From the NCBI GenBank assembly GCA_034005005.1, contig JAVEVO010000055.1:1-40986 (forward strand): a DNA stretch of 40,986 bases, in the 5' to 3' direction. The position numbers and the translations under genes are program-made. The notes below the pieces were generated by a model that had not been told where the DNA came from, made no database searches, and worked only from the letters and a program-made list of their open reading frames with translations. Shown here piece by piece: positions 1-38,219 of the stretch. This DNA comes from Myxococcota bacterium (GTDB lineage Bacteria > Myxococcota_A > JAVEVO01). The number at the start of each line of letters is the position of its first letter. Within the stretch, counting starts at the first letter, position 1.

Positions 1-87
1 GACGAGCCCGGCGATGGCCGGAAAGTCGGTCCAGTGCTGGTTGAGGGTCAGCTTGTAGAGCACCTGGATGATCGTCTCGGCCCAGCT

Positions 88-1764
88 CTAGCCCAGGGGC
101 TTGGCGATCCGGGCCGTGACCGCGTTCTGGCACTTGGCGTTGTCCTTGCCCCAGCACTCGGCGAGCGCCCGCATGGCACCGAGGGGCTCCTTGCCTTGCT
201 CCACGTACTCGAGCTTGGGTGCGGTGACCTTGGGATCGGCGGAGGTGTACAGGTCCAGCTTGCCCGAGGTCGGATCGATCAGGTCCACCACGCCGATGGA
301 GGCGTTGGCCCCCTTGAAGTCGATCCCTTTGTACTTGTCGTTCAGGTAGGTGGCCAGGCTGGGGTGAGCCTTGATGTACTCGGCGACCTGCTTCTGCGCG
401 TCGGGGGCCGCGGTCGCGGTGATCGCGGACGGGTCCACCTCGTTGGAGTTGGTCAGGCAGGCGTTGAGCACGACCCGGTGGTTGGGGGAGCTCGGGTCCA
501 TGTTGGCCATCAGCTCGGTGAAGAACTCGTCCGACTTCTTCTCGCCGCTGATCAGCGGCTGCTCCTCCACCTGCAGCTCTCCGCCCTCGACCTTGGTCCG
601 ACCGGCCATCTCGATGACGTTGACGTTGCCGTGGCCCGCGAGGATCGCCTGGTCGATCTTGCCCTTCTGCCCGTATTTCTTGGCGATCGGCTTCAGCCGG
701 CTCTGGGCCTGGCCCAGGGTCTCGGCGCCCTCGATCATCAGGGTCAGGTTCTGAGAGTTGGTGAGCACGTCGGTCAGCTTCGGGTCGCGGTGGAAGGCAC
801 CGTTGTGGTCGAGCGCGGTGTGCAGCACGAGGGTCAGGGGCTTCTTCTTGCTGGTGTCGCCCAGGTTGGTCACGAGCTGATCGAGACCGTTCTTCTCGAA
901 GCGGTGGAAGTTGCGCACGTCCTTGAGCTTGCTGTTGTACGTCTTGTAGGGCGCACCCTCGGCCTGCATCGCCTGGAACGAGGTGATCTCCATGCCCTCC
1001 TCGGCGTGCAGCAGGGGATCGCAGACCTTGACGTAGTCGAGGAACGCGGTCCCGTCCGCGGGGGTGTTGATCAGGTCGAGGAACTGCTGGTTGGGGATCA
1101 CCTTCTTGACCACCGCGCCGCCCGGCTTCTTCTCCAGCTCGGTCAGGTAGCTCCCCCAGGTCACTCCCTCGCTCACCAGGGCCGTGGTCTGCTCCAGCTC
1201 CACCGTCGGCTTGGTCTGCTTGAGCGCATTGGCGTAGGCCTTCAGGGCCGCAGTCTGCTTCTTGTCGGTCAGGGCGGTCGCCAGGTCGGCCACCCCCATG
1301 TCGCTGCAGGCGGCCAGGATCGCCTCGGTGGAGCGGGCGAACTGCACGACCGTCCAGAGCTTCTTGGCCTCCTTGGGGTCCATGCTGGAGCCGTTGGCCC
1401 AGTCGAGCTGCTGCTCGGTGTAGCTCGCCAGCTCTCCCAGGGTCATGGCGTAGAGATCCGCGGCGGCCTTGTAGTCGGCCTTCGCGTCCGGGTGGGCGCT
1501 CGTCCCGGTGCCGGTGCCGGTGCCGGTCCCGGTGCCGGTCCCGGTGCCGGTCCCGGTGCCCTTCCCCGTGGGGCCGGGTGGCCCTTTGGGCTTGTCCTTC
1601 TGCGGCCCGTCGCCGGCGAGCTGGCCTGCGAGGTCGCCTCCCGACTGACCCAGGGCAGGGATGCCCCCTCCCTTGGCCCGGGGGCTGTCCGCGTCCGACG
1701 ACGCGTTGCCAGAGGGCTTGCCGCTCGCGCCCTTCTTCTCTTCCGCATCCTGGGAGTAGGACAT
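88..1764 (-). CDS. hypothetical Lys-rich protein with C-terminal caspase-like (clan CD / CHAT-like) His-Cys dyad domain
   Basis: 558-aa ORF from ATG at 1762-1764 to the stop at 88-90. Its composition is non-repetitive and realistic (K/T/L/D-rich), unlike the R/G/P-rich shadow ORF on the + strand. The motifs AILAGHGNVNV (His) and VVLNACLTNS (Cys) lie about 60 aa apart after a hydrophobic strand (LTLVLHTALDH), as in clan CD peptidases. The N-terminus is disordered and carries a (GT)9 linker. Local GC is about 62% versus about 72% for the neighbours. Confidence 0.55.
   Translation of the reverse strand: MSYSQDAEEKKGASGKPSGNASSDADSPRAKGGGIPALGQSGGDLAGQLAGDGPQKDKPKGPPGPTGKGTGTGTGTGTGTGTGTGTGTSAHPDAKADYKAAADLYAMTLGELASYTEQQLDWANGSSMDPKEAKKLWTVVQFARSTEAILAACSDMGVADLATALTDKKQTAALKAYANALKQTKPTVELEQTTALVSEGVTWGSYLTELEKKPGGAVVKKVIPNQQFLDLINTPADGTAFLDYVKVCDPLLHAEEGMEITSFQAMQAEGAPYKTYNSKLKDVRNFHRFEKNGLDQLVTNLGDTSKKKPLTLVLHTALDHNGAFHRDPKLTDVLTNSQNLTLMIEGAETLGQAQSRLKPIAKKYGQKGKIDQAILAGHGNVNVIEMAGRTKVEGGELQVEEQPLISGEKKSDEFFTELMANMDPSSPNHRVVLNACLTNSNEVDPSAITATAAPDAQKQVAEYIKAHPSLATYLNDKYKGIDFKGANASIGVVDLIDPTSGKLDLYTSADPKVTAPKLEYVEQGKEPLGAMRALAECWGKDNAKCQNAVTARIAKPLG
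1507..1560 (-). repeat. hexanucleotide (GGTGCC/GGTCCC)9 repeat encoding (Gly-Thr)9 linker
   Basis: Direct reading finds 54 nt of 6-nt periodicity inside CDS 88..1764. Confidence 0.9.
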
Positions 1765-2308: not shown

Positions 2309-3349
2309 ATGCGTCGAGCTTCCCGGGATGGTCGGGCTCTGCTGGGGGTGGCCTTCGGGTTGATCGACTGCTTGATCGACGCGGCCCTGGCCACCGGGGA
2401 TCTGGCCTACGACCCCTTCCTCAACTTCGCCGTGGCCCAGAGCCGCATCCTGGACGCGGCGGAGGCGGTTCTGAACGCGGTCTACGCCGATCGGGGCAGC
2501 CTGGCGCGGGTCCACTGGCAGCGGGTTTGGACCGTGGGTTCGTCCAAGCGCGGCCACATGCCGCGAGCGTTCGCGGCCATCGATCCCCGGGCCCAGGGCT
2601 CGGTGGTGGCCGCCGCCGACCTCTCCAATCTGCCGGCCTTCCTGGACCTGCAACTCGCCGTCTGGTCCGGGGGCTACTCCTTCAGCGCGCCGGAGCAACG
2701 CCCAGCTCTGGACACGCCCGTGGGGCGGCGCTACCTCGACTGCTGCGACCCCTACTTCTGGGACCCCGAGGTGCTGGGCGAGATCCCCCTGGTCATCGCC
2801 GTGGGCACTCGAGATCCCCTCTATCCGCTCGCCGCGTCGCTGACCTACGTGGCGGGGCTGCCCGGCTCCACCCGCATGCTCTTCGTCCCCAACTACGGCC
2901 ACGGCCACGGCACCATCGACCACGTCGCCGCGTTCCGGACCCTGGTCCAGCGGGGCCTCGCGGGCGCACCCAGCCCCCGGCTGGAGGCCTCCTGGGATCT
3001 CGTCGAAGGGAAGGTGACCGCCACCCTCCGCGGTGGTGAGGCCGGGCTCGTGGAGCTCTGGTGCACTACCTCCCTGGGGCCGCAGAACACGGCGGTGCGG
3101 GAGACGAACGCGGCCTGCGAGCAGGTGGCCATGATCCCGGCGGACTCGCCCGATCTGCGGCACGCGACCTGGACCCGGCACCCCATGGCCAGCAGCGGCC
3201 CAGGTCGCTGGGAAGCCAGCCCGCCAGCCTCGGAGCTGTCGTATCCAGCCTGCTTCGTGCGCGTCGAGACGACGGCCGGGCAGCCTCTGACCAGCGGGCC
3301 GCTCCTGTCGCGGGCCTTGTGCCGGGCAGCAGGGCTGCCGGTGGAGTAG
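2309..3349 (+). CDS. PhoPQ-activated pathogenicity-related (PqaA)-like alpha/beta-hydrolase family protein (tentative)
   Basis: The ATG at 2309 follows a GGGGGGGAGGGACAGGAG ribosome-binding site and is in frame within ORF 1856..3349. The motif VGSSKRGHM resembles the SKRG nucleophile-elbow motif I remember for the PqaA family (PF10142). The protein is non-repetitive (LDCCDPYFWDPEVLGEIPLVIAVGTRDPLYP, VPNYGHGHG). The opposite-strand ORF 1805..3655 is compositional junk. Confidence 0.45.
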   Translation: MRRASRDGRALLGVAFGLIDCLIDAALATGDLAYDPFLNFAVAQSRILDAAEAVLNAVYADRGSLARVHWQRVWTVGSSKRGHMPRAFAAIDPRAQGSVVAAADLSNLPAFLDLQLAVWSGGYSFSAPEQRPALDTPVGRRYLDCCDPYFWDPEVLGEIPLVIAVGTRDPLYPLAASLTYVAGLPGSTRMLFVPNYGHGHGTIDHVAAFRTLVQRGLAGAPSPRLEASWDLVEGKVTATLRGGEAGLVELWCTTSLGPQNTAVRETNAACEQVAMIPADSPDLRHATWTRHPMASSGPGRWEASPPASELSYPACFVRVETTAGQPLTSGPLLSRALCRAAGLPVE

Positions 3350-3673
3350 GGGGGCATCGAGCGCGTCCCCCGGTGGAGCATGGGCGTCGCGTTCCTCGAC
3401 GAAGCGTCCCGGGAGCGCGCCGAGCCGATCGTACCGCACACCTGGCCCAGCCGCAGCCTCGTCCCCGGTGTCGGCAGCTCCAGCCGCGTGACGGGCCCGT
3501 CTAGCCTCCGCGCGAGGGGTCGCGTGACCCCGTGCGAAACACCCCTCCAGCCCCCACCCGCTCCAGCCAGTCGTGCGTCTTCGTGTACCAGCGCATGGGT
3601 GCTCCTGCCCCCGAGTCACGGCCAGCAGGATGCTCGCGGAGTACGGGGACGGCAAGAGGCCAGCCGGGCGCGC

Positions 3674-4309
3674 TCAGCCGTTGCGGTACAGCCGCAGTCG
3701 CGCCGCACCGAAGAGCAAGGGCCGCTCCCGCACGAGCTCCAGCTCGCGGGTCAGGCCGTCGAGCCCGCCCGCGGCGAGGTACGCCCGGAAGTTCCGGTAG
3801 TGGTCGCCGCCCGCGAGGAACTCGGCCAGGGTGGTGCCCAGCCGGCCGAGAATGCTGGTCCTTTCGTCATGGCAGTAGTCGACGAGCAGCAGGTAGCCGT
3901 CGGGCTTCACCACGCGACGGAGCTCGGCGAGCATGGCCTGGGCGGTCTCCCGGGGCTTCTCGTGGAGCGCGAGGCTGACCAGCCCGAGGTCGAACCCCGC
4001 GGTGGGGAGGTCGGTGCGGGTGGCGTCCTGCAGGGAGCAGCGGAGGGGAGGGGTCCCCCGGCGTGCCTGGCGGAGCATCTCGGGCGCGAGGTCGACCCCG
4101 ACGGTCTGGTCGTAACCGGCGCGCTGCAGGTGCTCGAGCTGGTCGCCGGTCCCGCAGCAGAAGTCGACGATCGAGCGCACGGGCAGCTCCTGCACCGCAG
4201 CGACGACCGCCCGGCGGACCGGGCGGAGGAACGGCCCGAGCAGCAGGTCGTAAGCCCGGGCGATGCGCAGGGAGTTGTCCACGGTCCCTCCTGGCGGTCC
4301 GGCGCTCAC
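3674..4309 (-). CDS. class I SAM-dependent methyltransferase
   Basis: 211 aa with motif I VDFCCGTGD, an acidic post-I loop (VGVDLAPEML) and motif II/III-like LVDYCHDE. The GTG start overlaps the stop of the upstream acyltransferase gene (GTGA). Confidence 0.8.
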   Translation of the reverse strand: MSAGPPGGTVDNSLRIARAYDLLLGPFLRPVRRAVVAAVQELPVRSIVDFCCGTGDQLEHLQRAGYDQTVGVDLAPEMLRQARRGTPPLRCSLQDATRTDLPTAGFDLGLVSLALHEKPRETAQAMLAELRRVVKPDGYLLLVDYCHDERTSILGRLGTTLAEFLAGGDHYRNFRAYLAAGGLDGLTRELELVRERPLLFGAARLRLYRNG

Positions 4310-5610
4310 GGCCGGGCGGCCTCCGTCAGCTCCTGGGACAGGTCGCGCGCGAGCCGGGCGGCCCGCGCCCGCGAGAGCAAGGGCTCGGTCGTGCTGAGGC
4401 AGCAGCTCGCCTCTGCCCCCAGGGAGGCGAAGGTCAGAAACAGCGGGTAGAGCCCCGCGGTCTGGGCCGAGGTGAAGCGCAGGGCCTTCACCCGTACCCC
4501 CGGGGGGAGGGCGGGCGGCGCGACGACGCCCAGGTTGGACAGGGCCGGTCCCTCCGCGAACCGGCCCAGGCCATGGGCCTGGGCGATCTTCTCCGCGGTG
4601 AGCCGGTCCAGCAGGGCGGGCGGGCTGCGCCGCGGGTGCCAGCCCCGGCTCCGCCGGGCTTGGAGCTGCGCACCGAGCGCGCGGGTGCAGCGGCCGGCCT
4701 CCTCCCAGAAGCTGGAGGCGGCCGGCAGCGGATGGTTCGTTGGTACCATGGTCATGAAGCAGCCGAGCTCCGCCGGGTCGATCCGGGGGACGGCCTCCTC
4801 CCGCAGGTCGACCGCGCTGGACAGGGCCGGCGGTGGGTCGCCGAGCTCCGCCCCGGCCACCCGCCGCACCGCCGCCAGGAGGGCGCCCTGGACCGTGGCC
4901 CCGGCGAGGCGGGCACGCAGTCGCAGGGCCGGGACCAGGCCGGGGGCCAGGGGGATCTCGGTCAGCCGGCAGCTCCGGGGCGTGGCCACGTCGCCCTCCA
5001 GGGGCCAGGTCGGGGCCGCACCGCTCGCCGGCCGGTCCCCGGCAGGCGCGCCCGGGGGTGGGATGGGGAGCCGCTGCTCCAGGGGTGCGGGCAGGGGCCA
5101 GCGGGCAAGCCGTTGGACCGGTCCGGGCTCGCCGGTGCCGGCGGCCAGCAAGTCCCAGAGCAACTGCACGCCGGCCCGCCCGTCCAGCAGGGAGTGGTGC
5201 GTGGTCAGGATGAGCTCCTGCTCCTCGTCCTCCAGGGCCGGCGCCAGGGTCAACCGCCAGAGGGGGGCCGTCGCGGCCGGTGGGTCCGCGGTCTCCTGAT
5301 CCGCGATCTCCGGCCAGCTCCCGACGGGGTCCGCGAGCACGCGGCAGGTCCCGTCCCGCTCCTGTTTTGGGGAGGCTTCCTGCCAGCCCAGCTCCCGCTC
5401 TCCCTGGACCAGGGTCGCGCGCAGCAAGGCGTGGCGGGCGACGAGGTCGGCCAGGGCCTGCCGGAGCCGGTCCGGGGCCAGGGGGCCCGCGACCCGGGCC
5501 GCCATGACCATGGTACCGGATCCCTCGTAGCGGGCGTGGTACACCGCCTGGACCGTGGGCCAGTGGCCCAGGGGGCGGAACGCGTCCGCGACCGGGCGGT
5601 TCGTGCTCAC
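4306..5610 (-). CDS. condensation-domain (HHxxxDG) acyltransferase, WS/DGAT / PapA5 / NRPS C-domain-like, stand-alone
   Basis: TTHHSLLDGRAG is the canonical HHxxxDG active site, and the N-terminal block PLAPDRLRQALADLVARHALLRATL is typical of C-domain starts. The long ORF 4306..6291 has an R/G/P/A-rich junk N-terminal third. The chosen GTG start at 5610 overlaps the stop of the upstream membrane-protein gene (GTGA). An alternative ATG start lies at 5511. Confidence 0.65.
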   Translation of the reverse strand: MSTNRPVADAFRPLGHWPTVQAVYHARYEGSGTMVMAARVAGPLAPDRLRQALADLVARHALLRATLVQGERELGWQEASPKQERDGTCRVLADPVGSWPEIADQETADPPAATAPLWRLTLAPALEDEEQELILTTHHSLLDGRAGVQLLWDLLAAGTGEPGPVQRLARWPLPAPLEQRLPIPPPGAPAGDRPASGAAPTWPLEGDVATPRSCRLTEIPLAPGLVPALRLRARLAGATVQGALLAAVRRVAGAELGDPPPALSSAVDLREEAVPRIDPAELGCFMTMVPTNHPLPAASSFWEEAGRCTRALGAQLQARRSRGWHPRRSPPALLDRLTAEKIAQAHGLGRFAEGPALSNLGVVAPPALPPGVRVKALRFTSAQTAGLYPLFLTFASLGAEASCCLSTTEPLLSRARAARLARDLSQELTEAARP

Positions 5611-6449
5611 GGCAGCCCGCCGAGCAGCAGCCCCATGGTCCCCAGGGTGCAGGCCGCGAGGGTCCAGCCGACCTTGCGGATGTGGCGCAGGTGGGGCGGG
5701 CGGATCGTCAGGAACAGGTTGAAGAGGAGCACCGGCAGGGGGGCCCAGGCCGCGACCGGGGGCAAGCGGCCGGACCCGGCGAGCAGGCTCAGCAGCAGCA
5801 GCCCCGCGCCGGCCAGCGCGATGGGCGCGAGCAGCCGCTGGCGGGTGGTGGCGCGCAAAGCCCGGGCGGTGACCCGGCGCACCGCGAGCGTGGCGTCGGT
5901 GAGGGCCAGCAGGTAGACCCCACTCACCGTCGCCGCGACCGCCAGGCTGGCCCCGCCGGCCCAGGCCACGGGGAAGGCGGCCAGCGCCAGCGCGGCCGAG
6001 ACCAGCAGCTCGCCCTCCACGGTCTTCTCCAGGCGCCCGAGGACCAGGGGCAGCAGGGCGAGCGCCGGCAGCACGGGCGGCAGCAGGGTCAGGGCGGTCC
6101 CCGCCGGGCCGAGCAGCAGGGCCGGCACCAGGCAGCCCAGGGCGAGCAGGGGCAGGAGGACGAGCTGGCGCCAGGCGCGGCCGAGGTGCTCGAAGCGCGC
6201 CTTCGGCCCCCGCAGGTTGGCGATGATCATGAAGGGCTCGTGGGCCAGGAAGACGGCGACCTCGGCCGTGGCCAGCAGCCACGCGGCCCACCCCCCGCGG
6301 GTCACGGCCAGGCTCGTGGCGAGGGGCACGAGGAGCTGGGCGAGCGCGCCCGTCTCCCGCGGCAGCAGCAGGGGACCCAGCCGCCGGGTCTGGCGCCAGG
6401 AGGCCGCGGTGTAGCGGACGTCGAACTCGGGGCGGGCGGTGCTGGCCAC
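5607..6449 (-). CDS. hypothetical integral membrane protein (about 8 predicted TM helices)
   Basis: 280-aa ORF of strongly hydrophobic L/A/V-rich segments separated by short R/P loops. Its stop lies 3 nt after the radical SAM gene and overlaps the next start. It sits in the operon in a frame distinct from the shadow ORF 4306..6291. Confidence 0.5.
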   Translation of the reverse strand: MASTARPEFDVRYTAASWRQTRRLGPLLLPRETGALAQLLVPLATSLAVTRGGWAAWLLATAEVAVFLAHEPFMIIANLRGPKARFEHLGRAWRQLVLLPLLALGCLVPALLLGPAGTALTLLPPVLPALALLPLVLGRLEKTVEGELLVSAALALAAFPVAWAGGASLAVAATVSGVYLLALTDATLAVRRVTARALRATTRQRLLAPIALAGAGLLLLSLLAGSGRLPPVAAWAPLPVLLFNLFLTIRPPHLRHIRKVGWTLAACTLGTMGLLLGGLP

Positions 6450-6452
6450 CCC

Positions 6453-8159
6453 TCAGCTCCGTCCCGGCGGCCGGGCCGGGGGCCGGCGGCGGTTCAGGCG
6501 GAGCTGCGCCCGGGGGAACAGCAGCGTCCGCCAGAAGAAGGCCCGCAAGGTCGGCATGAAGCGGGCGGGGGCCGCGAGCAGCCGGCCGATCAGCTCGAGG
6601 GTCAGCCGGGCCATGAGCAGCGGTCGGCGGCCCATGAGCCGGGTGGCCCGGAGGACGACCTTCGTCGCGAAGCGCAGCATGTACTGCTGATACTTGTCGA
6701 CGATGTACCAGATCTCCAGCTCCGGTGTCTCGACCATCGTCGGCATGAACAGCATGTAGGGGATCTTGCCCATGCGCTCGTAGGGACGGGCGTCGATCAG
6801 CCAGCCGTTGCGCTCACACCTGGCATACAGCTCCGTCCCCGGATAGGGCTTGTAGATCGAGAAGAAGGGTACTGTCCCGAAGCGGTCGAACAGGGAGAAC
6901 GCGTAGCGGAGGGTCTGATCGACGGTCTCCTTGCTCTCGCCGGGTAGCCCGAAGATGAACAGGCCGTTGTTGTCGAGCTCCAGCTCCCGGCAGAGGGCCA
7001 GGGTCTGCTCGACGTCGGTCAGGAGGAGCTCTTTGTTGGCGAGGGTGTCGAGCACCTCCTGGGAGCCGGACTCGATGCCGAACATCAGGTAGACGCAGCC
7101 CGTGCGCCGGCAGAGCGCGACGAGCTCCCGGTCGAAGCGGTCGGCCCGCACGCCGTTGGGGGTGTCCCAGGTGAGGTCGAGGTCGGCGCAGACCATCCCC
7201 TCGAGGATCGCCCGCAGCCGCTCCCGGTCGAGGGAGAGGTTGTCGTCCTCGAAGTGGACGTGGCGCACCCCGTGGTCCCGGGCGAGGAGGGCGAGCTGCG
7301 CGACCACGAAGGCGGACGAGTGGCGCCGGAACGCGTGCCCCATGGTGAGCTGGATCGAGCAGAAGCTGCAGCGGTAGGGGCAGCCGCGGCTGGTGATCAG
7401 GGTCACCGCCCGGTCGGTCCCGGGCAGATCGATGCTCTGGCGCGAGGGAAAGCCCAGGCGATTGAGTCGAAAGTACTGCTCGAAGTCGAGGCCCTCCCAG
7501 AGGGGCGGGATCGAGTCGAGATCCTCGAGGAACTCCGGCGCGTTGCGCTGCAGGGTGCCGTCGTCGCGCAGCCAGGCCACGCCGGGCGCGGTGCGGGGCT
7601 CCTCGCCCTGCTGCAGCCGCTGCAGCAGGGTCGTGAAGGCGATCTCGCCCTCGCCGAGCACCAGCAGGTCGAACGCGGGCGCCCGCGCCAGGTAGCGCTC
7701 CGGCTGCATGCTGACGTCGGTGCCGCCGGCGATGAGCAGGGCCGCGGGGAAGCGCTCCCGCAGCCGGCGGGCGAGCTCGAGCGCGTCCAGGAAGAAGGTC
7801 TCCGCGGCCACGGACAACCCGATGACGTCGGGCTGGAACTCCTCGGCGCGCCTCAGGATCTCGTCGAAGTCCAGGCCGAACAGCACCGGCGGGGGCTGCC
7901 GCTCGAGCCGGGCGAGGTCGGGGTAGGCCAGCGCGTCGAGGAGCTGTACCTCGACCCCGGGCAGCCGCCGCGCCGCGCTCGCCAGGTACAGCAGGGCGAG
8001 GGGCACGCCGACCCAGGGGCCGTCGGGGTAGACCAGGCTGCTGAAGGTGCCGGGTGGGCGGATGAGCAGGACCCGCAAGGGCTTCGGCCCCGCGACCCCC
8101 GGGGCCGGCTCCCCCGCGGTGAGCAATCCTCTCTCGTCAGCGGCGGACGCGTCGTCCAC
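6453..8159 (-). CDS. B12-binding (class B) radical SAM enzyme
   Basis: The radical SAM cluster motif SRGCPYRCSFCS (CxxxCxxC) sits in mid-protein. An N-terminal Rossmann-like B12-binding region (VIGLSVAAE...LLIAGGTD) precedes it. The family is typical of C-methylating or C-C bond-forming tailoring enzymes. The GTG start at 8159 lies about 23 nt inside the 3' end of the upstream GT2 gene. Confidence 0.85.
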   Translation of the reverse strand: MDDASAADERGLLTAGEPAPGVAGPKPLRVLLIRPPGTFSSLVYPDGPWVGVPLALLYLASAARRLPGVEVQLLDALAYPDLARLERQPPPVLFGLDFDEILRRAEEFQPDVIGLSVAAETFFLDALELARRLRERFPAALLIAGGTDVSMQPERYLARAPAFDLLVLGEGEIAFTTLLQRLQQGEEPRTAPGVAWLRDDGTLQRNAPEFLEDLDSIPPLWEGLDFEQYFRLNRLGFPSRQSIDLPGTDRAVTLITSRGCPYRCSFCSIQLTMGHAFRRHSSAFVVAQLALLARDHGVRHVHFEDDNLSLDRERLRAILEGMVCADLDLTWDTPNGVRADRFDRELVALCRRTGCVYLMFGIESGSQEVLDTLANKELLLTDVEQTLALCRELELDNNGLFIFGLPGESKETVDQTLRYAFSLFDRFGTVPFFSIYKPYPGTELYARCERNGWLIDARPYERMGKIPYMLFMPTMVETPELEIWYIVDKYQQYMLRFATKVVLRATRLMGRRPLLMARLTLELIGRLLAAPARFMPTLRAFFWRTLLFPRAQLRLNRRRPPARPPGRS

Positions 8160-9315
8160 GGATCACCTCCTCGGCCGGGTAGAAGGTCGCACTCCAGACG
8201 ACTCCCCGACGGCGGTGGAAGGCCCAGGTCGAGCGGGCGAGGGCCCCGGCGAACAGCAGCATCCCCAGGGGCAAGAGCACGGCGCCGAGCCGGGAGCCGC
8301 CGAGCCGGGCGCGGACGGTGCCCGCGTAGACGGCCAGGCCGAGCCCGGTGAACAGGAGGAGGGGCCAGAGCCAGGGCAGGGCCGCGGGGTGGCCGGCCGC
8401 GAGGGGGAGCAGGGGCGCGAGCAGGCAGACGAGGGTGAGCCCGAGGGCGCGCCCGGTCGCGAAGCCGGCCAGGCCGGCGAAGAGGTTCTTCTCCAGGCCG
8501 GCGAACATCGCGGCCAGGGACGGGTACCAGTCGAAGGCCACCTCGCCGGCGCTCGCCAGGACCAGGCGCCGGTGGCCGGGGCCCGCGCACAGCCAGCCGA
8601 CCCCCATGTCGTCGAGCAGCTCGAGCCGGAGCGCCGGGAAGCCCGGGGTCTGCAGGAACGCGGCCCGGCGGACCAGGTTGCAGGGGCCGAAGCCGGCATA
8701 CCCCGTGGGCGAGTCGTCCCCGGGCGGCCAGGTGGCGAGCAGCCCGCTGCGTACCAGGGAGACCAGCGCCGCCAGCCCGAGGCCTCGGGGGGGCACCCAG
8801 GGGAGGACCGTCAGGTGGTCCAGGGCCCGGGCCTGGGCGAGGCGGGCCAGGGCCGCCAGGGTCCCGGGGGCGAAGCGGGCGTCCGCGTCGCTGAAGAGCA
8901 CCAGCTCGCCCGTCGCGTGCTGCAGCCCGGTGTGCAGGGCGTGGACCTTGCCGAGCCAGCCGGGGGGCAGCTCCCGGACGTGCTCGGCCCGCACCCGGGG
9001 GTCGGCCGCGGCGAGCTCCTCCACCAGCTCGCCGGTCCCGTCCGTGGAGCGGTCGTCGACGAGGATCAGCTCGAGCCCGGGGAGCTGCTGGGCGAGCACC
9101 GAGGTCGCGGTCCGTCGGAGTCCGGCCGCGTCGTTGCGGGCCGCGATCACGACGCTCAAGGTCGGCGTGGGGCCCGGGGGCACCGCGGCCGGCGAGAACA
9201 GCGGCACCCGGCGGATCCGGGCGGTGAGGAAGAGGGCCGAGAAGAGCCAGAAGCTCAGCCCGAGCCCCCCGAGCAGCAGCCAGCCGGGCTGCGTCGGGGG
9301 CCAGGCGGGGATCAT
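8137..9315 (-). CDS. family 2 glycosyltransferase (GT2) with flanking TM helices
   Basis: LSVVIAARNDAAGLRRTATSVLAQQ...ELILVDDRSTDGT...LFSDADA carries the GT2 DxD and DD signatures. There is an N-terminal TM segment and a C-terminal multi-TM region. The ATG at 9315 overlaps the stop of the upstream CrtC-like gene (ATGA). The remainder of ORF 8137..10434 upstream of this ATG is junk. Confidence 0.8.
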   Translation of the reverse strand: MIPAWPPTQPGWLLLGGLGLSFWLFSALFLTARIRRVPLFSPAAVPPGPTPTLSVVIAARNDAAGLRRTATSVLAQQLPGLELILVDDRSTDGTGELVEELAAADPRVRAEHVRELPPGWLGKVHALHTGLQHATGELVLFSDADARFAPGTLAALARLAQARALDHLTVLPWVPPRGLGLAALVSLVRSGLLATWPPGDDSPTGYAGFGPCNLVRRAAFLQTPGFPALRLELLDDMGVGWLCAGPGHRRLVLASAGEVAFDWYPSLAAMFAGLEKNLFAGLAGFATGRALGLTLVCLLAPLLPLAAGHPAALPWLWPLLLFTGLGLAVYAGTVRARLGGSRLGAVLLPLGMLLFAGALARSTWAFHRRRGVVWSATFYPAEEVIRGRRVRR

Positions 9316-10391
9316 CCTGCACCGCCGGACGCGGCGGGACCGAGCGCGCCCCAGGAGGTGAGCAACTCCGGCAGGGGGCGGTCGGGATCGGTGCCCAGCT
9401 CGATGCCGGCCAGCTCGGACGTGGCCTGCAGCCGGGTGCGCCAGCGGCCCAGCCGAGTCCGCTCCTCGAGGGTCAGCGCGACGTGGCCGGTGAGGGTCTC
9501 CCGGTTGCAGAACAGCCCGCCCGTGGGCTTGGGCAGGTCGATGGGGAAGTAGCTGCCGGGCGCGGCGGTGGCGAGCAGCGAGATCCGCCGGGTCGGCCCG
9601 GTGGCCTCCACCCGCCAGCCCCCGGGCACTGCCTCGAGGCGGGTGCGGTGCAGGTGGATGGTCCGCAACGCGTGGACCTCGCCGGCATGCCGCACGCCGA
9701 GGCAGACCACCGGCTCCCCCTCGAAGCGGCAGAACAGGGCCGGCAGGCCCCCACCCACCACCAGGGCGGTGCCGGGGTGGCCCGCAAAGGCGTTGCACGC
9801 GATCCAGAGCCACCAGCGCGGGAAGAAGCGGCCCCAGTTGTGGTCGTGGTAGCCGGGTGCACCCGCCAGGCGCAGCTCCCCGCCGTCGGCCACGACCGTC
9901 CCGGTCAGGGAGAGGTCCGCGCCCCCCGGGTGCCAGTGGATGTTGGAGATCCCCGGGAAGAGCGGCACCCAGCTCGTGGCGTGAAAAGACCAGTGATTCT
10001 CGATGGATAGATCCCAGGAGACGGCATGGCCGCCCGCCTGGAGCCTTCCCTGGAGACGCTCCGGCGTCGCCTGGCAGCCGTCGATCCGCACGGCGGTCGT
10101 CGTGCGGGACGCGGCGAACTCGGCCGGCGGCAGGGGCCGGGTGACGAAGATCCCGCGCCGGGGCCAGCCGAAGGTGACGAAGGCCTGGCTCGCGGGCCAC
10201 TGGCGCTGCTCGTCGCCCGGATTCACGACCCCGTAGGCGAGGTAGAACGCGTCGCCCGTGGCCGGTACGACCCCTTTGTAGTACCACCACTCGAACCAGG
10301 GCGCGGGGGAGCTGTCCGGTCCCTGTCGACCCTGGAAGCCGTCGAGCCGACCCAGCCCGGGGAACGCTGCCCGACTGACCCGTGCGCTCAC
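9312..10391 (-). CDS. CrtC/AttH-like (hydroxyneurosporene synthase family) lipocalin-fold hydratase, tentative
   Basis: 359-aa Trp-rich ORF with an APWFEWWYYKG motif resembling the EWWY signature I remember for the CrtC/AttH family, plus an HDHNWGRFFPRWWLW block. It is first in the operon and has a 395-bp upstream intergenic region. Confidence 0.5.
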   Translation of the reverse strand: MSARVSRAAFPGLGRLDGFQGRQGPDSSPAPWFEWWYYKGVVPATGDAFYLAYGVVNPGDEQRQWPASQAFVTFGWPRRGIFVTRPLPPAEFAASRTTTAVRIDGCQATPERLQGRLQAGGHAVSWDLSIENHWSFHATSWVPLFPGISNIHWHPGGADLSLTGTVVADGGELRLAGAPGYHDHNWGRFFPRWWLWIACNAFAGHPGTALVVGGGLPALFCRFEGEPVVCLGVRHAGEVHALRTIHLHRTRLEAVPGGWRVEATGPTRRISLLATAAPGSYFPIDLPKPTGGLFCNRETLTGHVALTLEERTRLGRWRTRLQATSELAGIELGTDPDRPLPELLTSWGALGPAASGGAG

Positions 10392-10711
10392 CTCGTCTCT
10401 CCCGCCCGGCCTGGTCCGTTGCCTCCCTCGCCATTTAGGCGGCCGCGGCGGAGGGTGTCAAGGGACGGCGGGGCGCGGTCGCGTCAGCCGGCGCGGCACT
10501 CCCCGAGGAAGGTTTCCAGGTCGGCCAGGCTGCACCGCACCAGCACCTGCTCGCCGGGCTGCAGCCGGACGCCCGTGGCCCAGGTGGCGACTCTCCTGGC
10601 CAGGGCCGGGAGCACGACACGGCTGTCCTGCTCGCTCGCGCGAGGCCTACCCCGCAGCCTCGCAGGCTCCTGGTTCGTCGACCTTTTCAGACTGGGCATC
10701 GATGTTGCATA

Positions 10712-10737
10712 AAGTAACACCTGGTTTGCTGCCTGCT
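10712..10737 (+). promoter_or_regulatory. candidate sigma-54-type -24/-12 promoter (TGG-N9-TGC) in an AT-rich island
   Basis: The sequence gcataaagtaacaccTGGtttgctgccTGCtgcc lies about 50-75 bp upstream of the 10787 start. GG and GC are spaced 12 nt apart as in TGGCAC-N5-TTGC. The upstream sequence is unusually AT-rich for this DNA. This is a weak, pattern-only call. Confidence 0.2.
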
Positions 10738-10786
10738 GCCAGCCGTCCCGTGGGGGCTGGCCCGCTGTCGGGGTCGTGATCCAGCG

Positions 10787-12499
10787 ATGTCCGCCACTGC
10801 ACCACCCACCATCGGTCACCCCGCGCCCGGTCCCCGCCCCGCGGCCTGGGACCGACTGGTCGCTCGCTGGCGCCGTGGGCCTGGGCCTTCGTGGCTGCTG
10901 CCGGCCCTGGCGGTCCTCCTGGGGGTGGGCTGGGCGAGCAGCCAGCTCGGGAGCTTCCAGTACGCGGTCGACGACGCGTTCATCACCTTCTCGTTCTCCG
11001 AGAACCTGGCCGCGGGCGACGGCCCGCTGTTCGCGGCGGATCAGCGGGTGGAGGGCTACTCCAACTTCCTCTGGGTGGTGCTGGTCGCGCTCCCCCTGAC
11101 CGTCGCCCCCGAGCTGTCGCCCCTGCTGGTCGCGCGCTGGCTGTGCCTCCCGTTCGCCCTGCTGCTGAGCGCGGCGCTGTGGACGCTGGTCCGGCGGCTG
11201 AGCGGCTCCCGGGTCGCGGCCCTGGCCGCGCTCTTCCTGCTCGGCGGCACCTCCTCCCTGGCCCTGGCTTGTTTGTCTGGACTGGAAACCTACGCCTTCA
11301 CTGCGCTGGTCACCGCGGGCGTCGGGCTGCACCTGCTCTCCCGGCAGGACTCCCGCTGGGCCGTCGTCGCCCCGTGGCTGCTGCTCGCGGCCGCGCTGAC
11401 CCGGTTCGACGGGCTGCTCCCCTACCTGGTGCTGGGGGGCTGGGAGGCCGGGCGCGCGTGGCGCGGGGACCGGTCGGCCCGCCGGACCTTCCTGAAGCGC
11501 TGGGGCCCGCCCCTGGTGGTGTTCGCCGCGTGGTTCGCCTGGCGCTGGAGCTACTACGGGCTGCCGCTGCCGAGCACCGTGTACGCCAAGTCCCTGATCC
11601 CCCGGCTCCTGCCGACCCGGGGGCTGCAGTACGTCCTCCAGGAGCTCGCGGGCTCGGGGCTCCTCTTCGCGCTGGTGCCGGCGGGGCTCCTGCTGGCCTG
11701 GCGTCGCCCGGAGACCCGCCCCCTGCTCCTCTTCCTCGTCATCGACCTGGCCTATGTGGCCGCAGCGGGCGGCGACTGGATGCCCTTCGGGCGCTTCGTG
11801 CTCCCCGTGGTGCCCCTCGCGCTGGCCGTGGTCGTGCTCGGGGCGGCCGAGCTCGTCGCGGCCGGCCGGCGCGCTTCCCTGCCACTGGCGGTGCGGGTCG
11901 CGGGCTGGGGGCTGCTGGCCGCGGGGCTGCTCGGGCTCTGGCTGCAGCTCGACCACCGCTGGGTCAACGACCGCGACGAGCAGCGCAAGCTGGCCGCGGC
12001 CCGGCGGGAGCAAGCCCACGTCGAGAGCCTGCAGCAGGCCGCGGCCTGGCTCGACGAGGTGATCCCCCCGGGGGGGCGGCTGGTCACCGACTATGCGGGC
12101 GTCTTCGCGGTCGACACCGACGCCTACGTCATCGACACCTGGGGCCTGTGTACGCCCGAGGTCGCCTTGCGGGGCGACACGCGCGGCATCAACCCGATCT
12201 ACGGCAAGACCTGCCCGGCCTGCCTCGCCAGGCTCGCGCCGGAGTACTTCCACGTGCAGCAGCCCCTCATCCGCCAGGCCACGGCCTTCCGCTCCCCGGT
12301 CGAGGTCGTCGCGGCGGTCTTCCAGTACCGCCGGATCAGCCAATACATCGATCTAAAAAAGGATTTCATCGTCGGTCGAGTGCGCCAGCCCGCCACGGAC
12401 CGGGCCGCCTACTTCCTGGAGCGGCGGCGGCCGGGCCGCCAGTACCAGCCCCATCGGCTCTCCTCGGGCCGGCTCCTGGAGTATCCGTTCTCCCGCTGA
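10787..12499 (+). CDS. GT-C fold membrane glycosyltransferase-like protein (ArnT/PMT/arabinosyltransferase-like)
   Basis: 570 aa with 10 or more hydrophobic helices. An acidic motif (YAVDDAFITFSF) sits in the first loop as in GT-C enzymes, and there is a C-terminal soluble domain. It is transcribed divergently from the tailoring operon. Confidence 0.55.
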   Translation: MSATAPPTIGHPAPGPRPAAWDRLVARWRRGPGPSWLLPALAVLLGVGWASSQLGSFQYAVDDAFITFSFSENLAAGDGPLFAADQRVEGYSNFLWVVLVALPLTVAPELSPLLVARWLCLPFALLLSAALWTLVRRLSGSRVAALAALFLLGGTSSLALACLSGLETYAFTALVTAGVGLHLLSRQDSRWAVVAPWLLLAAALTRFDGLLPYLVLGGWEAGRAWRGDRSARRTFLKRWGPPLVVFAAWFAWRWSYYGLPLPSTVYAKSLIPRLLPTRGLQYVLQELAGSGLLFALVPAGLLLAWRRPETRPLLLFLVIDLAYVAAAGGDWMPFGRFVLPVVPLALAVVVLGAAELVAAGRRASLPLAVRVAGWGLLAAGLLGLWLQLDHRWVNDRDEQRKLAAARREQAHVESLQQAAAWLDEVIPPGGRLVTDYAGVFAVDTDAYVIDTWGLCTPEVALRGDTRGINPIYGKTCPACLARLAPEYFHVQQPLIRQATAFRSPVEVVAAVFQYRRISQYIDLKKDFIVGRVRQPATDRAAYFLERRRPGRQYQPHRLSSGRLLEYPFSR

Positions 12500-12599
12500 G
12501 CCGCTGGCGGCGAGCTGCCGGGGGGGGCCGGTTGTCGGCTGCCGAGGCCTCTGCTACGAATGGGCGGGGATTCCCCCGCTCGGGAGCCGGAGGTCGTCG

Positions 12600-13844
12600 A
12601 TGCCCCGCTGCACTCACCGTCGCTGGTCGCCCCTGGGCCTGCTGCCGCTGTCGCTCGTGCCCGCGCTCCTCCTCGCCGCGCCGGCCCGGGCCGGCCAGCC
12701 CGCTCCCGGGGGCGGGGAGGCCGGGGAGGCGGCCGCACCTCCGGCGGGCGACCCGCAGCGGCTGTTCGTCGCCCCGATCCGGGGGAGCAAGGGTCTCGAG
12801 GAGCCCGCGCGGCTGCTCGGCGAGGCCTTGAAGAGCGCCCTGTTGGGCACCGGCCGGTTCACCTTCTCCTCGGACGGCGAGCTCGACCGGCAGATCGACG
12901 AGGCCGTCCGGGCCTGCGCCTCCGACAAGATCGAGGACGCCTGTGGCGTGCGGCTCGGCGGCGGCAAGGGCGCGCGCAAGCTGGTCTCCGGACGGCTCGA
13001 GCCGGAGCCGGGTGGTCCCGCAGCCAAGCCGGCCCGGGGCGGCCCCGCGGCGAGCCTCCCGGCCCGTCGCTGCTACCTCACCCTGGCCCTCGTCGACCTG
13101 GAGACGCGCCAGGAGGAGCGCCGTGCGTTCGAGGCCACGGGCTGCCAGACCGCGGAGCTGCTCGCCACGGTGCCGCGGCTCGCGGCCAGCCTCGCGGGGC
13201 TCGCGCCGGCGACTCCGGCGGCGACCACCCCTCCCGGGGAGGCCGCGCCGCCAGCGGCTCCGCCGACGGGCGACGCCATCACCCTGAAGACCTACGTGCT
13301 CTGCCGCCGGCCGGTCCCGGGGGGGCCGGCGCGGGAGCTCCCCGAGTGCGTCGACCAGATCCTGCACGCCCGGGACCAGGTGAAGGTCGCGATCGAGGCG
13401 GATCAGCCGGTCTACGTCTACGTCCTCAATCACAACGAGACCGGGCAGTTCCAGGTCTTGCTCCCCGAGGTGGGCGCGGTGAACCTGATCCCGCCCGGGG
13501 GGCTGGTCATGCTCCCGCCGGGCGACGCCTGGCTCGAGCTGGACGAGCAGGCGGGAGTCACCGAGCGCCTGCAGGTCGTGGCCTCGGTCTCGCCGCTGCT
13601 CGAGCTGGAGCGGCTGCGGGGCGTGGAGATCCCCGCGGGCGGCACTCCCGCGCAGCAGCAGGCCGCGACCCAGGCGCGGGGGATGCTCGAGGGGTTCACC
13701 GCCCGGGGCCTCTCCCTGAAGAAGGGCTCGGCCGGTGCCGCGCCCGCCAAGGTCGCGATCGGCGACGAACTCGTCTCGGCCTTGCCCCTGATCGCCAAGC
13801 GGCCGGGGGTCGCGGTCATCGAGTTCCCGCTGCAGCACCGCTAG
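12600..13844 (+). CDS. secreted hypothetical protein, DUF4384-like C-terminal domain
   Basis: Signal peptide MPRCTHRRWSPLGLLPLSLVPALLLAAPARA. The C-terminal block QPVYVYVLNHNETGQFQVLLPEVGAVNLIPPGG...AWLELDEQAGVTERLQVVAS resembles DUF4384. Confidence 0.55.
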   Translation: MPRCTHRRWSPLGLLPLSLVPALLLAAPARAGQPAPGGGEAGEAAAPPAGDPQRLFVAPIRGSKGLEEPARLLGEALKSALLGTGRFTFSSDGELDRQIDEAVRACASDKIEDACGVRLGGGKGARKLVSGRLEPEPGGPAAKPARGGPAASLPARRCYLTLALVDLETRQEERRAFEATGCQTAELLATVPRLAASLAGLAPATPAATTPPGEAAPPAAPPTGDAITLKTYVLCRRPVPGGPARELPECVDQILHARDQVKVAIEADQPVYVYVLNHNETGQFQVLLPEVGAVNLIPPGGLVMLPPGDAWLELDEQAGVTERLQVVASVSPLLELERLRGVEIPAGGTPAQQQAATQARGMLEGFTARGLSLKKGSAGAAPAKVAIGDELVSALPLIAKRPGVAVIEFPLQHR

Positions 13845-31233: not shown

Positions 31234-31261
31234 CCTCACCTCCTGCGCGGCCTCGGGGGGG

Positions 31262-34199
<2,938 letters not shown>

Positions 34200-35906: not shown

Positions 35907-35972
35907 TCCCCACCCCCCGCCCTGGCTAAGCTCCAGGAGTCTGTGCCCCGTGCGTCCCCCCGGAGGTCGGCC

Positions 35973-38203: not shown

Positions 38204-38219
38204 CCGGCGCGCCAGTCCC

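Follow-up and report, generated by a model that had tools for sequence, protein, structure and literature searches.

Results

Gene content and organization of the operon

A GC3 frame plot of the window (the whole 40,986-nt stretch of Myxococcota DNA that we analysed, ~74% GC) identified six consecutive coding segments on the minus strand, with GC3 values of 0.90-0.99 across the genes and reading frames that agree with the listed ORFs. We refer to these genes as g1 to g6:

g1: 9312-10391, minus strand, 359 aa, GTG start, TGA stop; tocopherol-cyclase family protein
g2: 8137-9315, minus strand, 392 aa, ATG start, TGA stop; predicted membrane GT2 glycosyltransferase
g3: 6453-8159, minus strand, 568 aa, GTG start, TGA stop; predicted cobalamin-binding radical SAM enzyme
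g4: 5607-6449, minus strand, 280 aa, GTG start, TGA stop; YwiC-like membrane protein
g5: 4306-5610, minus strand, 434 aa, GTG start, TGA stop; predicted PapA5-like acyltransferase
g6: 3674-4309, minus strand, 211 aa, GTG start, TGA stop; predicted class I methyltransferase
10392-10786, no strand: divergent intergenic region upstream of g1, presumed promoter region

Overlaps of 4 nt join g1 to g2 (9312-9315), g4 to g5 (5607-5610) and g5 to g6 (4306-4309); g2 and g3 share 23 nt (8137-8159), and a 3-nt gap (6450-6452) separates g3 from g4. Six translationally coupled minus-strand genes with these coordinates and junctions had been proposed in the sequence-only reading, and all were reproduced by the frame plot and by translation. 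Several of the starts are preceded by Shine-Dalgarno-like purine runs, the clearest being GAGGAGGTGA ahead of g3; others are GGGAGAG ahead of g1 and GGAGG ahead of g6.

On one side the cluster is flanked by a convergent plus-strand gene whose end lies at 3349, and on the other by a divergent plus-strand gene beginning at 10787. A search of the presumed promoter region (10392-10786) for a sigma-70 consensus found none. This region includes a minus-strand coding-like stretch (10484-10699; minus-strand GC3 of 0.84-0.90), and a candidate 71-aa ORF there gave no match in family searches. The divergent neighbour (10787-12499) encodes a GT-C-like protein with weak matches to the AftB N-terminal motif (3.5e-4) and the LA_3751 family (4.9e-4).

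A tocopherol-cyclase family protein with a modelled CrtC/AttH fold

The sequence-only reading described g1 as a CrtC-like hydratase. In a Pfam profile search, g1 is a member of the tocopherol-cyclase family (PF14249, 6.6e-30; only profile positions 101-334 are covered) and does not match the CrtC family (PF07143), even at E<=10. However, a structure model built on a 4-sequence alignment assigns g1 the double beta-barrel fold of CrtC/AttH, so the proposed relationship to CrtC/AttH fails by sequence family and holds at the level of fold only. g1 sits in a rare bacterial clade of PF14249 characterized by EWWY and YxD[RH]NWG, and carries the motifs YHDHNWG, FPRWWLW and EWWY, the last of which we take to be a feature of CrtC/AttH proteins too. 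It resembles the tocopherol cyclases VTE1 and Slr1737 in PF14249 membership and in the YxE/DxNWG and FPxWxW region, but differs from them in belonging to the distinct EWWY clade, with Asp replacing Glu; bona fide cyclases (Pfam >400 bits) reach only ~120 bits against a g1 profile. YHDHNWG and FPRWWLW correspond to the tocopherol cyclase signature motifs YxEKNWG and FP+xWxW+QxNxF, and as of 2016 the bacterial tocopherol-cyclase-like proteins had no assigned function (PMC4963081); no later characterization of one came up in the literature consulted. The acid/Trp signature of g1 also parallels the proton-donor and cation-pi set of CrtC, D268/W283/W285 (PMC12402844). We predict that g1 is a cytoplasmic, acid-catalysed olefin hydratase or cyclase.

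Glycosyltransferase, radical SAM, UbiA-fold, acyltransferase and methyltransferase components

Profile matches for g2 (PF00535, 8e-24; Glyco_transf_21, 8e-7) point to a membrane-anchored GT2 of the lipid-acceptor type, with an architecture like that of HpnB, HpnI, CruG and GT21 enzymes. The resemblance to the lipid glycosyltransferases HpnB, HpnI and CruG extends along the whole TM-GT-TM arrangement, which in g2 comprises one N-terminal hydrophobic segment, a DAD motif at residue 143, and hydrophobic stretches towards the C-terminus (~residues 278-363). The NCBIfam matches, HpnB (1.9e-31, full length) and CruG (3e-20), are all far under cutoffs; HpnB scores 109.5 bits against an equivalog cutoff of 379.

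g3 is assigned to the class B (cobalamin-binding) radical SAM enzymes by its PF02310 (1.2e-16) and PF04055 (9.6e-18) domains and by a CxxxCxxC motif, CPYRCSFC, at residue 260. Its top NCBIfam matches are HpnJ (3e-45; 154.9 bits, equivalog cutoff 578), a P-methyltransferase family (4e-44) and BchE (3e-39), and its closest match among solved structures is the sugar-acting enzyme AprD4 (3.9e-22). Since g3 falls far under every NCBIfam equivalog cutoff, methylation, desaturation and sugar rearrangement are all candidate chemistries. A ~40% identical relative sits in a cluster encoding a GT1, the radical SAM enzyme, an MMPL protein and an acyltransferase_3 protein, which looks like a locus for glycolipid synthesis and export.

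g4 matches the YwiC-like family (PF14256) and is predicted to be a polytopic membrane protein; literature searches found no functional description of this family. A confident model has the UbiA-superfamily prenyltransferase fold. Asp-rich motifs define catalytically active UbiA prenyltransferases and are needed for prenyl-diphosphate ionization. g4 differs from UbiA, UBIAD1, DGGGP synthase and DPPR synthase in that the Asp-rich Mg-diphosphate motifs (NDxxDxxxD and DxxxD) are absent, and there is no match to the PF01040 profile; in place of the motifs are conserved Glu, His and many Arg residues. g4 may not handle a prenyl diphosphate at all.

By family, g5 is a stand-alone, PapA5-like O-acyltransferase of the condensation fold: it matches PapA_C (6e-8; 32.8 bits, cutoff 30), Condensation (8.5e-5) and PapA5 in the PDB (8s6l, 2.4e-9), and retains an intact HHxxxDG motif (HHSLLDG, residue 138). 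Enzymes of the PapA family O-acylate lipid diols or sugars. The likeness extends to mycobacterial PapA5 and to PapA1-3 of sulfolipid and polyacyltrehalose synthesis in the condensation fold, HHxxxDG and PapA_C, but similarity to the NCBIfam PapA5 subfamily is low (2e-14; 53 bits, cutoff 396) and the window has no PKS or MmpL partner. g6 is by family a small class I SAM-dependent methyltransferase resembling UbiE/MenG (Methyltransf_25, 2.5e-17; Methyltransf_11, 2.5e-15; Ubie_methyltran, 2.3e-6), with motif I (DFCCGTG) at residue 49; its NCBIfam matches are generic only, the nearest named families including UbiE/MenG, RquA and MpqE.

These profiles and motifs bear out the earlier calls of a GT2, a B12-radical SAM enzyme, an HHxxxDG condensation-type acyltransferase and a SAM methyltransferase. 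The description of g4 as a membrane protein was also correct, but missed the YwiC-like family and UbiA fold.

Conservation of gene linkage

Related loci are few and all metagenome-derived (MAGs and unbinned contigs), giving a small sample of ~six lineages. Those with a taxon name are all Myxococcota or "Deltaproteobacteria", save one 601-bp Planctomycetaceae fragment. All related loci carry a g3 orthologue (58-69% identity), and g4 directly follows it in all except L001, the two being adjacent or overlapping in L004/L013/L019/L020, L005/L011, L012, L007/L008, L022 and L023/L024. The order g1-g2-g3-g4 is kept in L005 and L012, with another Myxococcales MAG among the carriers, and in L001 the g1 and g3 genes share 4 nt. 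GT2 genes resembling g2 (42-44% identity) occur in L005, L012, L004 and L013, adjoining g3-g4 in the last two. The g4-g5-g6 segment recurs in a related strain (L021; 86-96% identity), where the g5 orthologue (86%) directly follows g4 and the g6 orthologue is 96% identical; among the loci compared, g6 is confined to the lineage of the window.

A cyclase-like gene and a GT2 are common in the related loci. However, g1 is absent from L004, L007 and L022, g4 from L001, and g2 from the available parts of L001, L007 and L022; since each of the three is missing somewhere, no fixed pathway can be read from the loci. The acyltransferase, methyltransferase or PAPS/sulfotransferase genes differ by lineage: in L022 the radical SAM gene is overlapped by CysN/CysC and a sulfotransferase gene is present as well, and L004 has a sulfotransferase gene. 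Sulfotransferase genes beside related cassettes recall sulfolipid-1 synthesis. We found no crt or other isoprenoid, hopanoid or sterol genes beside the operon in the window or in any related locus. The sequence-only reading had raised a polysaccharide or lipid A setting for homologous cassettes as the finding that would speak against it; the related loci are not of that kind. Because g3 and g4 are the most conserved part, we conclude that the cassette is not a simple hydratase-glycosyltransferase-acyltransferase tailoring module.

Alternative pathways

We considered the possibility that the operon builds a hopanoid-style head group, with g2 glycosylating a lipid alcohol, g3 rearranging or C-methylating the sugar in the manner of HpnJ, AprD4 or GenK, and g5 and g6 decorating it. 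HpnB/HpnI and HpnJ are the top-scoring named families for g2 and g3, the hopanoid system likewise directs a membrane GT2 and a cobalamin radical SAM enzyme to a terpenoid lipid, and both the AprD4 match and the grouping of glycosyltransferase, radical SAM, acyltransferase and MMPL genes around the g3 relative fit this scheme. Nonetheless, we regard it as unlikely: the scores of g2 and g3 are only between one quarter and one third of those needed for equivalog assignment; shc, other hpn and deacetylase genes are not present; L001, L007 and L022 carry g3 with no adjacent GT2; and g1 and g4 are left without a role. To our knowledge, hopanoid pathways do not include enzymes of the g1, g4, g5 or g6 type.

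A tocochromanol-like pathway would use g4 to prenylate an aromatic quinol, g6 and g3 to methylate the ring or chain, g1 to close the chroman, and g2 and g5 to glycosylate and acylate the phenol. A g4/g6/g1-type trio parallels plant VTE2/VTE3/VTE1. The UbiA-fold protein, of the type of UbiA, UBIAD1 and HPT aromatic prenyltransferases, and a methyltransferase near the prenylquinone enzymes UbiE/MenG, RquA and MpqE are consistent with this, as is the cyclase signature region kept in g1 (PMC4963081). Yet neither Asp-rich motif is present in g4, g1 groups in the separate EWWY clade, g6 is lineage-restricted, and homogentisate or other aromatic-precursor genes were not found nearby; moreover, the host is non-photosynthetic, and the glycosylation, acylation and radical SAM steps have been added relative to the VTE pathway. 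This scheme thus seems quite unlikely.

The sequence-only reading favoured carotenoid tailoring, in which g1 would hydrate the 1,2 position, g2 glycosylate the 1'-OH and g5 acylate the sugar (as for CrtC/CruC/CruD and myxobacton esters), with g3 and g6 methylating and g4 perhaps acting as a UbiA-type elongase/hydratase like LyeJ or CrtEb. Systems combining CrtC with CruC/CruD, CruG or CrtQ/CrtO follow the same logic, whereby a terminal isoprene C=C is hydrated, the alcohol glycosylated and the sugar acylated. Carotenoid glucoside esters are known products of myxobacteria, and C50 pathways include UbiA-family enzymes that use carotenoids as substrates. The fold of g1, its Asp/Trp active-site pattern with EWWY, and the partial CruG match of g2 agree with this scheme. 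However, g1 does not match PF07143; g2 scores higher with HpnB than with CruG; the acyltransferase is of the condensation/PapA5 type; what the loci share is g3 and, except in L001, g4, rather than the set of hydratase, glycosyltransferase and acyltransferase; some lineages attach PAPS/sulfotransferase genes instead; and crt genes are absent from the 41-kb contig and all related loci. We also know of no B12 radical SAM or UbiA-fold partner in CrtC/CruC/CruD-type pathways. The carotenoid model is therefore left without support, and we consider it decidedly improbable.

Finally, it is highly improbable that g4, as a decaprenyl-phosphate phosphoribosyltransferase-like enzyme, and g2, as a polyprenyl-phosphate glycosyltransferase-like one, supply a modified polyprenyl-phosphate sugar donor to the GT-C-like neighbour for an envelope glycan: the many conserved arginines of g4 suit phosphate binding and the neighbour has its weak GT-C matches, but that gene adjoins the cassette in no other locus examined, the full-length match of g2 is to lipid-hydroxyl GT2s rather than ArnC/GtrB-type enzymes, and the scheme offers no clear function for either a CrtC-fold olefin-protonating enzyme or a PapA5-like acyltransferase.

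A proposed pathway for modification of a membrane lipid

Our preferred reading, to which we give slightly less than an even chance, is a rare, self-contained operon that modifies and decorates a hydrophobic membrane lipid, most probably isoprenoid or polyprenyl-derived. The broader idea, a glycoside-ester cassette for a terpenoid or other lipid that has not been described before, survives, shorn of its carotenoid specifics. By analogy, the nearest mechanistic precedent would be archaeal Ted and Hgs: ted, encoding a B12 radical SAM desaturase, overlaps the AttH-like hydratase gene hgs, and the two enzymes jointly hydroxylate isoprenoid lipid tails (bioRxiv 10.1101/2025.10.20.683597). The likeness, one of gene arrangement and predicted chemistry, lies in the coupling of a B12 radical SAM gene to an AttH/CrtC-fold gene (overlapping in L001, in the same operon in the window), in the predicted action on hydrophobic lipid chains, and in the predicted oxygen-independent installation of a tertiary hydroxyl. 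In contrast to Ted-Hgs, the host is bacterial, g1 belongs to PF14249 and is not annotated as AttH, the pair is joined by a UbiA-fold protein, GT2, acyltransferase and methyltransferase, and the substrate cannot be GDGT.

What we observed is the layout of the genes, the families and folds to which they belong, their conserved motifs and their linkage across loci; each functional step of the possible pathway below is inferred from these. The UbiA-fold protein g4 would bind or make a prenyl-type lipid within the membrane; the Arg and Glu residues conserved in g4 suggest that the head group of this lipid is anionic, either phosphate or diphosphate. g3 would then attack an unactivated lipid carbon, either for C-methylation or for Ted-like introduction of a double bond. 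g1 would add a proton to a trisubstituted C=C. Asp183 of YHDHNWG would serve as the acid, and the tryptophans of WWxW would stabilize the resulting cation; capture of this cation by water would yield a tertiary alcohol (as for CrtC/Hgs), and capture by an internal hydroxyl would instead close a ring (as for tocopherol cyclase). The membrane GT2 g2 would move a sugar from a nucleotide sugar onto the lipid hydroxyl, g5 would O-acylate the sugar or a second hydroxyl, and g6 would add a methyl group. Other lineages would keep the g3 core (with g4, g1 or g2) and replace the late steps with PAPS synthesis and sulfotransfer. The product in this uncultured myxobacterium is probably a modified, sugar-bearing, acylated membrane lipid, made by a set of enzymes not characterized in bacteria.

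Structure and surroundings of the six-gene operon

The sequence-only reading of this DNA proposed a tightly coupled operon of six minus-strand genes that could tailor a carotenoid or terpenoid glycolipid. At ~74% GC, raw ORF lists for the window are crowded with spurious frames, which a third-position GC frame plot resolves; the plot gave six successive coding segments from 3.67 to 10.39 kb, in the same frames as the ORFs proposed. Translation bore out the coordinates and start codons, and all six genes stop at TGA. From first to last, they are as follows.

g1: 9312-10391, minus strand, tocopherol-cyclase-family protein
g2: 8137-9315, minus strand, GT2 glycosyltransferase
g3: 6453-8159, minus strand, B12 radical SAM protein
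g4: 5607-6449, minus strand, YwiC-like membrane protein
g5: 4306-5610, minus strand, PapA5-like acyltransferase
g6: 3674-4309, minus strand, methyltransferase

All five junctions are as originally described: three overlaps of 4 nt (9312-9315, 5607-5610 and 4306-4309), one gap of 3 nt (6450-6452) and one overlap of 23 nt (8137-8159). This last overlap contains a strong GAGGAGGTGA upstream of the g3 start, and GGAG-type runs lie upstream of the g1, g4 and g6 starts. The operon is flanked by the end of a convergent gene at 3349 and the start of a divergent gene at 10787. An Rfam scan upstream for a cobalamin riboswitch or other RNA returned 0 matches at gathering thresholds, and likewise no tRNAs; a promoter/terminator consensus scan was uninformative. 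Within the window, the surroundings of the operon contain neither crt nor hpn genes, nor sterol or prenyl synthase genes. The rest of the contig, which belongs to a Myxococcota MAG, carries the usual myxobacterial genes (Ser/Thr kinases, PEGA, TPR and FGE-sulfatase), along with several other features.

10484-10699, minus strand: coding-like stretch directly upstream of g1 (GC3 0.84-0.90) that could encode ~71 aa (MPSLKRS...GECRAG)
10787-12499, plus strand: divergent gene for a 570-aa polytopic membrane protein with weak GT-C-type matches (AftB arabinofuranosyltransferase N-terminal motif, 3.5e-4; LA_3751/3752 family, 4.9e-4)
26541-29912, minus strand: 1123-aa AAA_16 protein
29977-31467, minus strand: T2SSE-type ATPase
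31269-34340, minus strand: bacterial protein that has both shoulder and repeat domains of the major vault protein (MVP_shoulder 1e-16, Vault_3, Vault_4), adjoining the two preceding genes; the domain set is unusual for a bacterium
34377-40114, plus strand: gene run encoding an HMG-CoA-synthase-like protein (509 aa, weak matches, 24 kb from the operon), a thrombospondin type 3 repeat protein, a 350-aa radical SAM protein, the aspartate decarboxylase PanD (38294-38671) and NlpC/P60

g1 combines a tocopherol-cyclase-family sequence with a CrtC/AttH fold

The sole Pfam match of g1 is the tocopherol cyclase family PF14249 (6.6e-30; 104.8 bits, where the cutoff is 26.6), covering profile positions 101-334 only. 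The CrtC family PF07143 gave no match, whether at E<=0.1 or at E<=10. A phmmer search against PDB sequences returned nothing useful, and only a fold search was informative: the AF2 model of g1, built on 4 sequences (pLDDT 79, pTM 0.80), has the two-barrel lipocalin-like fold of AttH and CrtC. Thus, the description of g1 as "CrtC-like" holds for its fold and fails for its sequence family.

The proposed catalytic region of tocopherol cyclases consists of YxEKNWG followed by FP+xWxW+QxNxF (PMC4963081). The equivalents in g1 are YHDHNWG, with Glu replaced by Asp and Lys by His, and FPRWWLWIACNAF; D183 of YHDHNWG is invariant, and W193, W194 and W196 come after it. In RgCrtC, the proton donor is D268, and W283/W285 stabilise the cation (PMC12402844). 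We infer that the Asp and downstream Trp residues of g1 may parallel these CrtC residues.

An exhaustive search of 1.84 billion representatives with a g1 profile (E<=1e-3) recovered 1883 relatives, of which ~16 form the close clade. Members of this clade are marked by EWWY, YxD[RH]NWG and FPxWWxW, whereas in bona fide cyclases the corresponding motifs are EGWY and YxEKNWG; proteins that score 350-830 bits on PF14249 reach just ~90-175 bits on the g1 profile. Judged by sequence, g1 does not appear to be orthologous to the photosynthetic VTE1/Slr1737. [quoted passage not shown]

Members of the wider family occur in other settings. In P0155, a 907-aa metagenomic protein, a g1-clade domain with a lipoprotein-like N-terminus is joined to an extended C-terminal part, which closes with a c-type cytochrome CxxCH motif (CMGCH). 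In L002, a locus from a low-GC organism (35%), a SOUL haem-binding gene lies between two tocopherol-cyclase-like paralogues (2364-5472); GNAT, DCC1-like and GH3 genes are also nearby, a setting for this family quite unlike that of g1.

g3 and g4 form a radical SAM and YwiC-like core

Matches of g3 to PF02310 (residues 52-178) and PF04055 (residues 255-419), together with the CxxxCxxC motif CPYRCSFC at residue 260, place it among the class B, B12-dependent radical SAM proteins, as had been proposed. Its best NCBIfam families, HpnJ, a P-methyltransferase family and BchE, are each matched at about a quarter of their own cutoff; for the HpnJ equivalog, the score is 154.9 against 577.6. About seven orthologues share 59-68% identity with g3, and beneath these lies a broad family at 35-45%. 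The best 120 matches, most of which are nameless, include no named archaeal protein. A relative with ~40% identity lies within a GT1 - radical SAM - MMPL - acyltransferase_3 cluster, which looks like one for glycolipid synthesis and export. In L006, from a Bdellovibrionales MAG, the gene for a 42% identical relative overlaps a haem-oxygenase-like (HamA_HO-like) gene (8273-10674) amid FA_hydroxylase, DAO, GT28/EryCIII-like and PLD genes, so that this broader radical SAM family again occurs in what looks like a lipid-related setting.

The product of g4, previously called only a membrane protein, does have a membrane fold, and more specifically is YwiC-like (PF14256, its sole Pfam match, with no match to PF01040) with an intramembrane UbiA fold (model pLDDT 91.5 from a 15-sequence alignment). 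It lacks the Asp-rich motifs NDxxDxxxD and DxxxD, and 0 Asp residues are conserved across the alignment. The conserved residues are instead E32, Q38, H70-E71, R80, R83, R94, E141, T143, E147 and R191, and stand-alone YwiC homologues have the same set and likewise lack Asp-rich motifs. We found no description of YwiC function in the literature searched. None of g1, g3 and g4 reaches the level of a curated NCBIfam equivalog.

g2, g5 and g6 encode predicted decorating enzymes

The remaining three assignments agree with the sequence-only reading. g2 is a GT2 enzyme by its PF00535 match (also Glyco_transf_21) and by a DxD-type motif (DAD at residue 143) between membrane segments, namely an N-terminal hydrophobic segment at residues 11-32 and C-terminal hydrophobic stretches at ~278-363. 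Its matches to HpnB (full-length, 1.9e-31, 109.5 bits against an equivalog cutoff of 379), CruG (3e-20, residues 24-239 only) and HpnI (full-length, 2.6e-5) all fall far under the cutoffs. Its predicted architecture is that of GT2 enzymes that glycosylate lipid hydroxyls. g5 is, as stated in that reading, a condensation-type acyltransferase, with both the HHxxxDG motif (HHSLLDG at residue 138) and PapA_C (32.8 bits, cutoff 30); it matches PapA5 in the PDB (8s6l, 2.4e-9) and scores 53 bits on the NCBIfam PapA5 subfamily, under the cutoff of 396. Members of the PapA family form esters of lipid diols and sugars. Neither NCBIfam nor Pfam returned a CruC or CruD model. g6 is a small class I, UbiE-like SAM methyltransferase.

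Related loci share the core and differ in the late genes

Word-indexed searches gave 4 relatives of g1 and 17 of g4; wider scans gave 4 loci in 185,579 species genomes and 5 in JGI metagenomes, too few for statistics on co-occurrence. This system, referred to below as the cassette, is rare.

Related loci outside the window (locus; source; gene content)
L005/L011 and L012; Myxococcales MAG; g1-g2-g3-g4
L004/L013/L019/L020; Deltaproteobacteria/Myxococcota; g3-g4 facing a gene for a 752-aa GT2 (43% identical to g2), with an additional radical SAM gene and a sulfotransferase gene
L007/L008 and L023/L024; metagenomes; g3-g4 alone, then HlyD/RND genes
L022; metagenome; CysN/CysC (PAPS synthesis) overlapping g3-g4, with a sulfotransferase gene
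L001; Deltaproteobacteria MAG; g1 and g3 with a 4-nt overlap, g2 and g4-g6 absent within 10 kb
L017, L021; strains near that of the window; identical g3-g4 and g4-g5-g6 junctions

Across these loci g3 is constant, g4 directly follows g3 except in L001, g1 and g2 are frequent, and the late decorating genes vary. In L022, a gene for a CysN/CysC fusion (the GTPase subunit of sulfate adenylyltransferase joined to APS kinase; 1-1713, plus strand) shares an overlap with the beginning of the g3 orthologue, and a sulfotransferase gene lies nearby (5471-6670, plus strand), which suggests that the product in this lineage is sulfated. In L004, the second radical SAM gene, whose best NCBIfam match is TrsS (1.9e-22) followed by Tes (3e-17), and the sulfotransferase gene are adjacent to the gene for the 752-aa GT2.

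The 752-aa protein of L004 (11499-13757, minus strand), L013, L019 and L020 has an N-terminal g2-like GT2 domain. Its C-terminal ~350 aa include an HxxxDG motif (SHIRADG) and a weak PapA_C match (E 0.029); BLASTP of the C-terminal 356 aa against g5, a PDB search and NCBIfam were all blank. These features give only a hint that the protein may be a GT2-acyltransferase fusion. L011 (CAYRIB010000082.1) and L012 (CAYRIB010000081.1) come from one Myxococcales MAG and are near-parallel copies of the region that includes g1-g2-g3-g4; this doubling could reflect strain heterogeneity in the bin or duplication. L012 has an additional 439-aa gene after g4 that belongs to no family.

A proposed lipid-modifying pathway and its alternatives

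The chemistry probably takes place on a hydrophobic membrane lipid, probably an isoprenoid, given that g4 has a prenyl-chain-binding membrane fold, g3 is a radical enzyme suited to unactivated carbons, g1 resembles acid/cation-pi enzymes that act on trisubstituted olefins, g2 is of the lipid type, and g5 and g6 are an O-acyltransferase and a methyltransferase. For the pairing of g3 with g1, the closest precedent by analogy would be a recent one from archaea, in which the gene of the B12 radical SAM desaturase Ted overlaps that of the AttH-like hydratase Hgs, and the two enzymes convert saturated isoprenoid tails into tertiary alcohols without oxygen (bioRxiv 10.1101/2025.10.20.683597). The L001 locus has a similar arrangement, since its g1 (10001-11185) and radical SAM gene (11182-12939) overlap, whereas in the window g1 and g3 share an operon with g2 between them.

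From this precedent and the family assignments we propose the order g3/g4, g1, g2, g5, g6. The g3 protein, with g4, would activate the lipid by methylation or desaturation; g1 would hydrate or cyclise an olefin; g2 would glycosylate a hydroxyl; g5 would then acylate, and g6 methylate, the product. All five steps are inferred; what is shown is the gene structure, families, motifs and linkage. We tentatively suggest, as a reading that is itself rather unlikely, that the cassette is a bacterial counterpart of Ted-Hgs, in which g3 and an obligate UbiA-fold g4 devoid of Asp motifs activate inert lipid carbon without oxygen, g1 forms a tertiary alcohol or ring, and a sugar is added to the hydroxyl before acylation, methylation or sulfation.

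Head-group chemistry of the HpnI/HpnJ kind would agree with the best-scoring family names; however, it assigns no role to g1 or g4, and g3 is also found with no GT2 nearby, so that we regard it as unlikely. Although a tocochromanol-like pathway would suit the names of the families to which g1, g4 and g6 belong, we consider it quite unlikely, since g4 lacks the Asp motifs, g1 falls in a separate clade and g6 is confined to one lineage. The carotenoid model of the sequence-only reading, tailoring of a carotenoid glycoside ester on the logic of CrtC, CruC and CruD, now seems distinctly improbable: there are 0 crt genes in the window or the related loci, and the radical SAM and YwiC-like core would be left unexplained. 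Synthesis of a polyprenyl-phosphate-sugar donor is very doubtful, as it depends on the GT-C-like neighbour at 10787-12499, which is absent beside the cassette in the other loci examined. Lastly, a RiPP pathway, prompted by B12 radical SAM matches to ApyD/ocin families, a g6 match to ApyS and the ~71-aa ORF, is unlikely because that ORF has no Pfam match and no room for a counterpart in L005 (g1 intergenic gap ~141 nt), and because g1, g2, g4 and g5 have lipid-type folds or architectures.

Implications

The combination of g1-g6 corresponds to no described system, although its parts are known kinds of enzyme arranged in a known logic, in which a lipid is modified and then glycosylated and acylated. 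The loci are few and all metagenomic, and their relevance is chiefly to lipid biochemists; if the cassette merely decorates a known carotenoid or quinone, its importance would be modest. The operon brings two widespread families without known function, that of the tocopherol-cyclase-like proteins of bacteria and that of the YwiC-like proteins (PF14256), together with partners that can be interpreted, a setting that gives a concrete, testable hypothesis for both. If the cassette does work like Ted-Hgs, both families would gain their first functions, and the UbiA fold a new use. Oxygen-independent hydroxylation of lipid chains would then extend to bacteria and be tied to a new class of myxobacterial glycolipid, which would matter for lipid biomarkers, for membrane adaptation and for the natural products of myxobacteria.
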